A model generated the notes under the pieces. It had not been told where the DNA came from and searched no databases. It was given only the letters and a program-made list of their open reading frames with translations. Shown one piece after another: positions 18,378-18,740 of a stretch of 64,000 bases of DNA; the stretch's first letter is position 1, and the number at the start of each line of letters is the position of its first letter. This stretch comes from Escherichia phage vB_Eco_T-01. Where the stretch lies: the sequence record PQ438391.1; one strand, written 5' to 3'. Position numbers and translations under genes: made by a program.

Positions 18378-18740
18378 ATGAAAGCATATCAAATTCTTGA
18401 AGGCACACACAAAGGCACTATTTATTTTGAAGATGGTATTCAAGCACGAATTATCGTTTCTAAAACCTTTAAAGAGGACTCTTTTGTAGACCCAGAAATT
18501 TTCTATGGTTTGCATGCCCGTGAAATTGAAATTGAGCCACAGCCTACAGTTAAAATTGAAGGCGGTCAACACCTGAACGTTAACGTTCTGCGTCGCGAAA
18601 CTCTGGAAGATGCAGTTAAGCATCCGGAAAAATATCCGCAGCTGACCATCCGTGTATCCGGTTATGCAGTTCGCTTTAACTCTCTGACTCCGGAACAGCA
18701 GCGCGACGTTATCGCTCGTACCTTCACCGAGAGTTTGTAA
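18378..18740 (+). CDS. autonomous glycyl radical cofactor (GrcA/YfiD-like; T4 Y06I-type)
   Basis: 120 aa; C-terminal pyruvate-formate-lyase glycyl radical motif RVSGYAVRF. Confidence 0.85.

Follow-up and report, generated by a model that had tools for sequence, protein, structure and literature searches.

The vs.6 gene of a T4-like Escherichia phage is a mosaic of a phage-type head and a glycyl-radical tail of host grcA DNA

Introduction

Escherichia coli YfiD (GrcA) and phage T4 Y06I are spare-part proteins of about 14 kDa (Wagner et al. 2001, as summarised in PMC8683613). According to this summary, the activase of pyruvate formate-lyase (PFL), PFL-AE, installs a glycyl radical on both YfiD and T4 Y06I, and the activated proteins form a complex with PFL that has been cleaved by O2 and restore its activity. 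YfiD and T4 Y06I are the sole two spare parts that have been validated (Andorfer et al. 2021, PMC8683613). In YfiD, residues 1-60 are disordered by NMR and matter for the binding of cleaved PFL and for the installation of the radical, and residues 61-127 make up a structured radical domain, which takes the place of the PFL C-terminus (PMC8683613). The T4 gene, vs.6, is among the few ORFs of unknown function that were kept in all of the six T4-like genomes compared by Nolan et al. (2006, PMC1524935).

Here we analyzed a stretch of 64,000 nucleotides from Escherichia phage vB_Eco_T-01 (PQ438391.1), hereafter called the window, which contains a counterpart of this gene. Neither the gene nor its biochemical function is new, and databases annotate vs.6 as GrcA. 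What we describe is the composition of its DNA, in which a phage-type half is joined to a half that is nearly identical to the grcA gene of the host.

Results

Identification of the vs.6 gene

The ORF of 120 aa named in a preliminary description of the window, made from the sequence alone, was found at exactly the coordinates and on the strand given there (Table 1). It is flanked by small unrelated and tightly packed phage ORFs, and the final A of its TAA stop codon is also the first letter of the ATG of the following ORF. The surrounding 1.4 kb are 97-98% identical to many Tequatrovirus genomes, and the gene order vs.8-vs.7-vs.6-vs.5...regB, with the RegB and Vs.1 ORFs downstream of vs.6 in the window, is collinear with the annotated loci of Sf22 and T4. 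The encoded protein is identical to T4 Vs.6/Y06I at 119/120 aa (R73 here, H73 in T4); 352/363 nt of the gene are identical to T4, with Shigella phage Sf22 and T4 at 98% DNA identity. Synteny and protein identity together support the assignment of the gene as the orthologue of T4 vs.6, predicted to encode an autonomous glycyl-radical cofactor. More widely, blastn detected vs.6-related sequences in more than 1,400 phage records, T5-like and Vibrio phages included.

BLASTP of Vs.6 against E. coli K-12 GrcA gave 73/100 identities (E=9e-52), and the final 60 residues (aa 61-120) are identical to GrcA residues 68-127. Among solved structures, Vs.6 matched GrcA (6OWR) with E=8.6e-42 and the C-terminus of PflB with E=5e-26. 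The Pfam domain Gly_radical (PF01228) was recognized with E=2.8e-18 and 66.8 bits (cut-off 22.2), and residues 1-120 of Vs.6 aligned to profile positions 1-121 of PHROG 1209 (E=1.2e-62). On TIGR04365, the NCBIfam GrcA equivalog and the best-scoring family for Vs.6, the protein obtained 153.3 bits for residues 20-120, the only part aligned; this is below the cut-off of 170 bits because the N-terminal half is divergent (E. coli GrcA scores 234). Vs.6 has the GrcA format, that of a small stand-alone protein without the catalytic barrel of glycyl radical enzymes. The preliminary description was therefore right in calling the gene a stand-alone cofactor of the GrcA/YfiD type and a homologue of T4 Y06I. 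It had also stated that the protein ends in the glycyl radical motif RVSGYAVRF: the motif occurs at residues 92-100, which leaves 20 residues between it and the C-terminus. A motif failing to align with GrcA had been named as the observation that would speak against the assignment, and the motif aligns perfectly. In an alignment of 38 homologues the Gly95 column and its flanks are invariant.

Table 1 Features of the vs.6 locus (positions in the 64-kb window)
Feature	Position	Strand	Remarks
vs.6 / grcA-like CDS	18378..18740	+	ATG-initiated ORF, 120 aa and stop; supported orthologue of T4 vs.6 (Y06I)
Shine-Dalgarno GAGG	18369..18372	+	5 nt 5' of the vs.6 ATG; overlaps the TGA stop of vs.7 (18368-18370); read directly from the sequence
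Phage-type head, aa 1-60	18378..18557	+	AT-rich; likely a diverged homologue of the N-terminal half of GrcA
Host-type tail, aa 61-120 and stop	18558..18740	+	Glycyl-radical domain; 177/183 nt identical to K-12 grcA
161-nt block 100% identical to K-12 grcA	18564..18724	+	Longest exact match; minimal host-derived conversion tract
GGT codon of Gly95, predicted radical site	18660..18662	+	Aligned with GrcA Gly102 and PflB Gly734
Phage-type 3' end, TTC ACC GAG AGT TTG region	18725..18737	+	Five synonymous differences from E. coli (last 15 nt); marks the 3' junction

A promoter and terminator consensus scan of positions 16700-20100 returned 12 sites, compared with 11.7 in shuffled sequence, and no dedicated signal. 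Since no separate promoter above chance was found nearby, vs.6 is probably co-transcribed with vs.8 and vs.7. The vs.7 ORF as called (17990-18370, 126 aa) aligns with PHROG 2049 from residue 18 on only, and vs.7 is annotated as a protein of 109 aa in Sf22 and T4; for these two reasons its true start is probably the ATG at 18041. The vs.8-like ORF (17457-18044, 195 aa) gave weak, sub-threshold matches to AAA_14 (E=0.0023), and its Sf22 homologue is annotated without the N-terminus of T4 Vs.8.

Some of the records retrieved carry annotation errors. In the T2 record AP018813.1 vs.6 bears the name 'tail sheath monomer' and the genes beside it are given as tail proteins, and phage ST2 (OM982647.1), a T4-like phage of 171 kb, carries a Guernseyvirinae/Kagunavirus taxonomy line. 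Several 'viral' IMG/VR contigs that matched the Vs.6 query encode full-length PflB-like proteins (open frame up to >600 aa); they are probably bacterial or prophage-flanking sequence within a viral collection.

Mosaic structure of vs.6

The vs.6 gene is a mosaic of an AT-rich, phage-type head and a tail of host DNA, a feature absent from the preliminary description. The GC content and GC3 are 0.35 and 0.23 in the head and 0.51 and 0.49 in the tail, and in a sliding window the GC content climbs from about 0.30 to about 0.50 across the head-tail junction. When vs.6 was compared by blastn with 5,426 complete E. coli genomes, nt 179-363 alone aligned, to grcA, with 96.8% identity; there was no alignment to E. 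coli grcA 5' of nt 179 of the gene (window position 18556). The 161-nt block is 100% identical in the E. coli matches listed, and 3686 records fall in the band of at least 99% identity. The same 5,426 genomes gave no chromosomal match to the whole 64-kb window besides the vs.6 tail. The sole other E. coli match in the window is a plasmid one: the tRNA-Tyr region at 9194-9286 is 91.5% identical to a tRNA-Tyr on a listed E. coli plasmid record, and 264 plasmid places were matched. The window has 11 tRNA genes clustered at 8612-9632 (Gln, Leu, Gly, Pro, Ser, Thr, Met, Tyr, Asn, His and Arg); T4 has 8 tRNA genes.

The head-tail boundary, GTTAAAATT/GAAGG, is the same in all the phages compared, the Klebsiella phages included, and the distance from the 3' junction to the stop codon is 12-20 nt in these phages. 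Karamvirus and Jiaodavirus share the TTC of the 3' end with the window. In the protein, the boundary falls between positions corresponding to GrcA residues 67 and 68, near the limit between the disordered and structured parts of YfiD reported in PMC8683613.

Pairwise comparison of the head with GrcA residues 28-67 gave 33% identity over 40 aa (E=2e-5), Vs.6 residues 1-21 remaining unaligned, and the head is likely homologous to the N-terminal half of GrcA. From the 38-sequence alignment AlphaFold2 modelled residues 1-50 (18378-18527) as a confident beta-rich domain with four strands and a short helix (pLDDT ~90); the radical domain was modelled less confidently than the head. Significant Foldseek matches were confined to the tail (YfiD and PFL), and for the head the search of the PDB returned only non-significant KOW/Spt5-like matches (E>0.2). 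The model suggests that the phage head may act differently from the disordered N-terminus of the E. coli protein.

Origin of the host-type tail

Possible donors were compared in a set of grcA genes from 81 bacteria, each from a different GTDB species. The gene closest to the window tail was that of E. coli K-12 (177/183), followed by that of another Escherichia species (174). Other genera shared 158-166 of the 183 positions; the norm between genera among enterobacterial grcA genes is a median of 158/183, and the E. coli tail shares 160-169/183 with those of other enterobacterial genera. The dS is 0.024 between the tail core and E. coli, compared with 0.52 between E. coli and K. pneumoniae. Because the grcA tails of hosts follow host taxonomy and host codon usage and GC3, and because each of the 5,426 E. 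coli genomes has grcA, the direction of transfer is read as host to phage.

The phage-type head was found in 813 phage records of Tequatrovirus, Mosigvirus, Karamvirus and Jiaodavirus, and also in the Pseudotevenvirus phages RB43 and RB16. The tails of Karamvirus (for example CC31, PG7, EnC07 and ZX13) and Pseudotevenvirus show 75-84% identity at most to the bacterial grcA genes of the set, and the Karamvirus, Pseudotevenvirus and T5-like tails together 65-84%. The tail of Karamvirus, a genus of Enterobacter phages, is AT-rich (GC3 0.21-0.30). As these other T4-like lineages carry the same head with a diverged tail, the whole gene appears to be old in T4-like phages and the host-identical tail to have come later, by a putative gene conversion that overwrote a segment which was already homologous. 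We also considered whether a host fragment had been joined to an ORF with no relation to it, and rejected this in view of the diverged GrcA-type tails of Karamvirus and Pseudotevenvirus.

The same arrangement was found in Klebsiella phages. In KPV15 (Jiaodavirus) a head with 74% nt identity to the window is joined to a GC-rich tail whose identity to grcA is 97.1% for K. pneumoniae, 92% for K. aerogenes and 86.7% for E. coli. The K. pneumoniae comparison was made with CP125156.1, a replicon of 5.37 Mb filed as 'plasmid unnamed2' in the plasmid collection. There are 20 positions that separate E. coli from K. pneumoniae tails. At these diagnostic sites T4, vB_EQ1 and Mosigvirus p000v have the E. 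coli state at 20/20 and the window at 18/20, its two exceptions being at the two ends of the tract; the Jiaodavirus Roth76 has the K. pneumoniae state at 18/20. The tail of the Klebsiella phages thus appears to represent an independent, parallel event.

Two of the sequences used here have frame defects. In KPV15 (locus 1501-1865) a single nucleotide is missing from the vs.6 head, and the record splits the gene into two CDSs, one called 'hypothetical protein' and the other, of 52 aa, 'pyruvate formate-lyase'; the deletion is either a sequencing error or the mark of a pseudogene, and other Jiaodaviruses have an intact vs.6 of 120 aa. In the grcA gene of K. aerogenes NCTC10006 (LR134122.1) an extra A truncates the annotated CDS.

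Recurrence of tail replacement

Comparison of the Jiaodaviruses Roth76 and phiKp_22 revealed 0/180 differences in the head, 12/168 in the tail core and 0/15 in the 3' end. The phiKp_22 tail variants occur in the grcA genes of Raoultella and other Klebsiella; the best match of the phiKp_22 and PKO111 tails was a Raoultella MAG (157/168, 93.5%), and a search of the plasmid collection for the donor of these tails gave nothing above 90.6%. Between the window and Mosigvirus, dS is 0.54 in the head and 0.16 in the tail. Jiaodavirus tails are more diverse than their own heads, whereas Tequatrovirus tails are less diverse than theirs, a pattern that fits a tail diversity mirroring that of the donors, with many Klebsiella species on one side and one E. 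coli on the other.

Finer differences were seen within the E. coli phages. The window tail has the CGC codon of K-12 and other tequatroviruses have CGT; the 168-nt tail of the CGT type is 100% identical to grcA in the E. coli strains listed. The junction codons also vary: GGC ... TTC ACC GAG AGT TTG in the window, GGT ... TTT ACC GAG AGT TTG in T2, GGT ... TTT ACT GAA AGT TTG in T4 and ... GAG AGC CTG in Shfl2. The CGC/CGT and junction-codon differences are single synonymous sites at which parallel mutation could have occurred, and the evidence from the Jiaodavirus pair and from head and tail diversity is stronger than that from alleles and junctions. Taking the approximately 20 phage sequences together, a repeated host-to-phage replacement of the radical domain is well supported. 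We consider it likely that in T4-like phages of the hmC type that infect E. coli and Klebsiella the radical-domain half is a host-tracking cassette, repeatedly overwritten by the grcA allele of the infected host through recombination during lytic growth, while the N-terminal domain is kept, as are the four or five codons at the 3' end.

A different history would be that each phage lineage received its tail in one horizontal transfer, later differences having arisen by mutation or phage-phage recombination with no ongoing conversion. This would agree with the E. coli-type tail and the GTTAAAATT/GAAGG boundary shared by all the Tequatro- and Mosigviruses examined, and with junction differences that are single synonymous sites only. 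Despite the shared boundary, however, the first host-diagnostic site is GGC in the window and GGT in T4. Nor would one transfer per lineage lead us to expect a tail dS between Tequatro- and Mosigviruses that is about a third of the head dS, Jiaodaviruses with identical heads and 3' ends that differ at 9-12 tail sites by variants present in other Klebsiella or Raoultella grcA genes, or, among the tequatroviruses, two E. coli alleles that both match E. coli strains exactly. We therefore regard this history as unlikely.

In the repeated replacement that we favour, the radical-domain half would be overwritten by the grcA gene of the current host via homologous recombination or gene conversion. Infection by T4-type phages breaks host DNA into fragments, and their very active homologous recombination can use short homologies. 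Runs of identical nucleotides in the conserved radical domain would let the phage and host copies recombine, and a tail that is already host-like (~87% identical to any enterobacterial grcA) would make the exchange with a new host easier. E. coli phages (Tequatrovirus, Mosigvirus) would in this manner come to carry E. coli DNA and Klebsiella phages (Jiaodavirus) Klebsiella DNA, and Karamvirus and more distant lineages would keep the diverged AT-rich tail. That hmC and the degradation of host DNA are the reason why only some genera were converted is speculation; in PMC8056088 we found no genus-level information on either. It is uncertain that the host-tracking replacement is adaptive, an exact match to host PflA and PflB being advantageous: exact matching may have been selected (PflA recognition, PflB docking) or may be a neutral by-product of homology.

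Proposed function of Vs.6

By analogy, the best explanation for the role of Vs.6 is the repair of O2-cleaved PFL by the mechanism of Y06I, because its radical domain is identical to that of GrcA and because it shares all but one residue with Y06I. The preliminary description had suggested a possible repair of host PFL, and this activity is indeed published for T4 Y06I (Wagner et al. 2001, via PMC8683613). The published chemistry is that of T4 Y06I in vitro; its occurrence in infected cells and its benefit to the phage we infer. In the mechanism that we propose, vs.6 would be expressed together with the neighbouring early genes and host PflA, the radical-SAM activase of PFL, would abstract hydrogen from Gly95. 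The activated C-terminal domain of 60 residues would then take the place of the PflB radical domain lost on oxygen cleavage at Gly734, which would restore the conversion of pyruvate to acetyl-CoA and formate, and with it fermentative ATP, in an infected cell that no longer makes host protein. The phage N-terminal half would correspond to the half of GrcA that promotes cleaved-PFL binding and radical installation in E. coli; its dN/dS is about 0.1-0.2 (~0.11 versus Mosigvirus), which, like the presence of vs.6 in 6/6 T4-like genomes, points to selection. Host gene expression stops during T4 infection, so that damaged PflB and host GrcA could not be replaced unless the phage supplied the part, a plausible rationale for carrying the gene. 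Taken as a whole, the explanation that vs.6 is a spare part of the Y06I type with a radical-domain half overwritten by host grcA is, in our judgement, highly probable.

Vs.6 could instead act as a decoy or modulator, mimicking GrcA in order to titrate PflA or occupy PflB and thereby redirect or damp host fermentation, with a folded head that alters the outcome. The low identity of the head to that of GrcA and its predicted fold would suit such a role, as would the control that the N-terminal half exerts over binding and activation in E. coli (PMC8683613), and a decoy would need the exact host mimicry that is seen in the tail. Yet T4 Y06I is reported, in the summary given in PMC8683613, to restore and not to inhibit PFL activity, and the radical site has not been lost but lies in an invariant stretch. 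A decoy consequently seems improbable to us, and repair of PFL remains the preferred reading.

Relation to NrdD and NrdG

The preliminary description had placed NrdD and NrdG at 36737..39021 and implied that they form a functional group with Vs.6. Both genes are present there: the NrdD ORF (36737..38554) matches PF13597 with E=3.6e-171 and also carries a Gly_radical domain, and the NrdG ORF (38551..39021) has Fer4_12 and Radical_SAM domains. The gene directly upstream of nrdD, with an overlap of 4 nt, encodes endonuclease VII (gene 49 homologue; PF02945, PF09124; 36267-36740).

The sequences gave no support for the implied grouping. In it, Vs.6 would provide the phage NrdD with a replacement radical domain, activated by NrdG and serving nucleotide metabolism; this reading draws on the presence of both genes in the same window, on the Gly_radical domain of NrdD and on the role in nucleotide metabolism that has been proposed for vs.6 (Nolan et al. 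2006, PMC1524935). BLASTP of Vs.6 against the window NrdD, however, gave no detectable similarity and left the radical motif unaligned (E=6.3), while the Vs.6 tail is 100% identical to GrcA and 78% identical to the PflB C-terminus. Furthermore, the genes are 18 kb apart and the reported biochemistry, as far as PMC8683613 summarises it, is with PFL and PFL-AE. The sequences largely refute a spare part for NrdD, which we hold to be very improbable, and a functional unit of Vs.6, nrdD and nrdG was rejected on the comparison with NrdD, GrcA and PflB. Vs.6 appears to be a part of the PFL type and not of the RNR type, and because its radical domain is of the PflB/GrcA type the expected activase would be host PflA rather than phage NrdG.

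Least credible of all is that the E. coli-identical block is an artefact of host reads in the assemblies, a product of codon-usage convergence or a phage-to-host transfer: host DNA is present in phage lysates and the Jiaodavirus record ValerieMcCarty01 has Ns in vs.6 (five in the tail and two in the head), but the same mosaic is found in the T4 reference, in T2 and in the ~20 phage genomes examined of the 813 head-positive records, convergence cannot give matches at 18-20 of 20 synonymous diagnostic sites, and the taxonomic and GC3 signal of the host tails, with grcA in every E. coli genome, speaks against a transfer from phage to host, so that each of the three is excluded by the data. For X04567, a T4 record of the 1980s, the comparison covered the head, for which a match is listed.

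Discussion

Strictly virulent T4-type phages degrade host DNA and, to our knowledge, are usually thought to share almost no identity with their hosts at the nucleotide level. In vs.6 we find a host copy that is exact over ~165 nt and that varies by host species and between phages otherwise identical around the tail. Such a gene would offer a natural assay for the recombination of host chromosomal DNA into lytic phage genomes, and its tail is a possible marker of the recent host species of a phage. It would also provide a natural domain swap, with a fixed head and a variable host tail, in which to ask which half decides the recognition of damaged PFL. If our reading is true, vs.6 keeps a record, readable from sequence, of which hosts a phage has recently used and of how genes flow from chromosomes into virulent phages. 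In the searchable literature, including PMC1524935, PMC8683613 and PMC13450708, we met no account of host-identical vs.6 DNA; key older papers are outside this search and a prior mention is possible, so that the novelty of the mosaic and of host tracking is uncertain.

The closest known system is T4 Vs.6/Y06I itself (UniProt Y06I_BPT4; PHROG 1209). The two genes have the neighbours vs.8, vs.7, vs.5, vs.4, vs.3 and regB in common and are the same mosaic with an E. coli-type tail. They differ in that the host-identical tract is longer in T4, which has GGT and TTT ACT GAA where the window has GGC and TTC ACC GAG. With E. coli GrcA/YfiD (TIGR04365, IPR011140, PDB 6OWR) Vs.6 shares the stand-alone format of ~14 kDa, the identical 60 C-terminal residues and the glycine of the predicted radical site, Gly102 in GrcA being equivalent to Gly95; GrcA and T4 Y06I are also reported to share their activase and the enzyme that they rescue. 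In contrast to GrcA, the phage protein has an N-terminal half that is shorter by 7 residues and shows only ~33% identity over 40 aa.

The C-terminal radical domain of PflB (PDB 2PFL, residues 697-759) has the same fold and fingerprint, with 78% identity over 63 aligned residues, and is the part which Vs.6 and GrcA are thought to replace. Unlike PflB, Vs.6 has neither the catalytic barrel nor Cys418/Cys419 and could work only in complex with PflB.

A parallel for the mosaic itself is cyanophage psbA, for which intragenic host/phage mosaics have reportedly been found (Zeidner et al. 2005; Sullivan et al. 2006). That system likewise involves a virulent T4-like phage and a host metabolic gene, parts of which are swapped with the copy in the host through homologous recombination. 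The vs.6 gene differs from it in two respects: one structural domain alone is exchanged while the phage-specific domain is kept, and the tract is short (~165 nt) and matches the current host species exactly.
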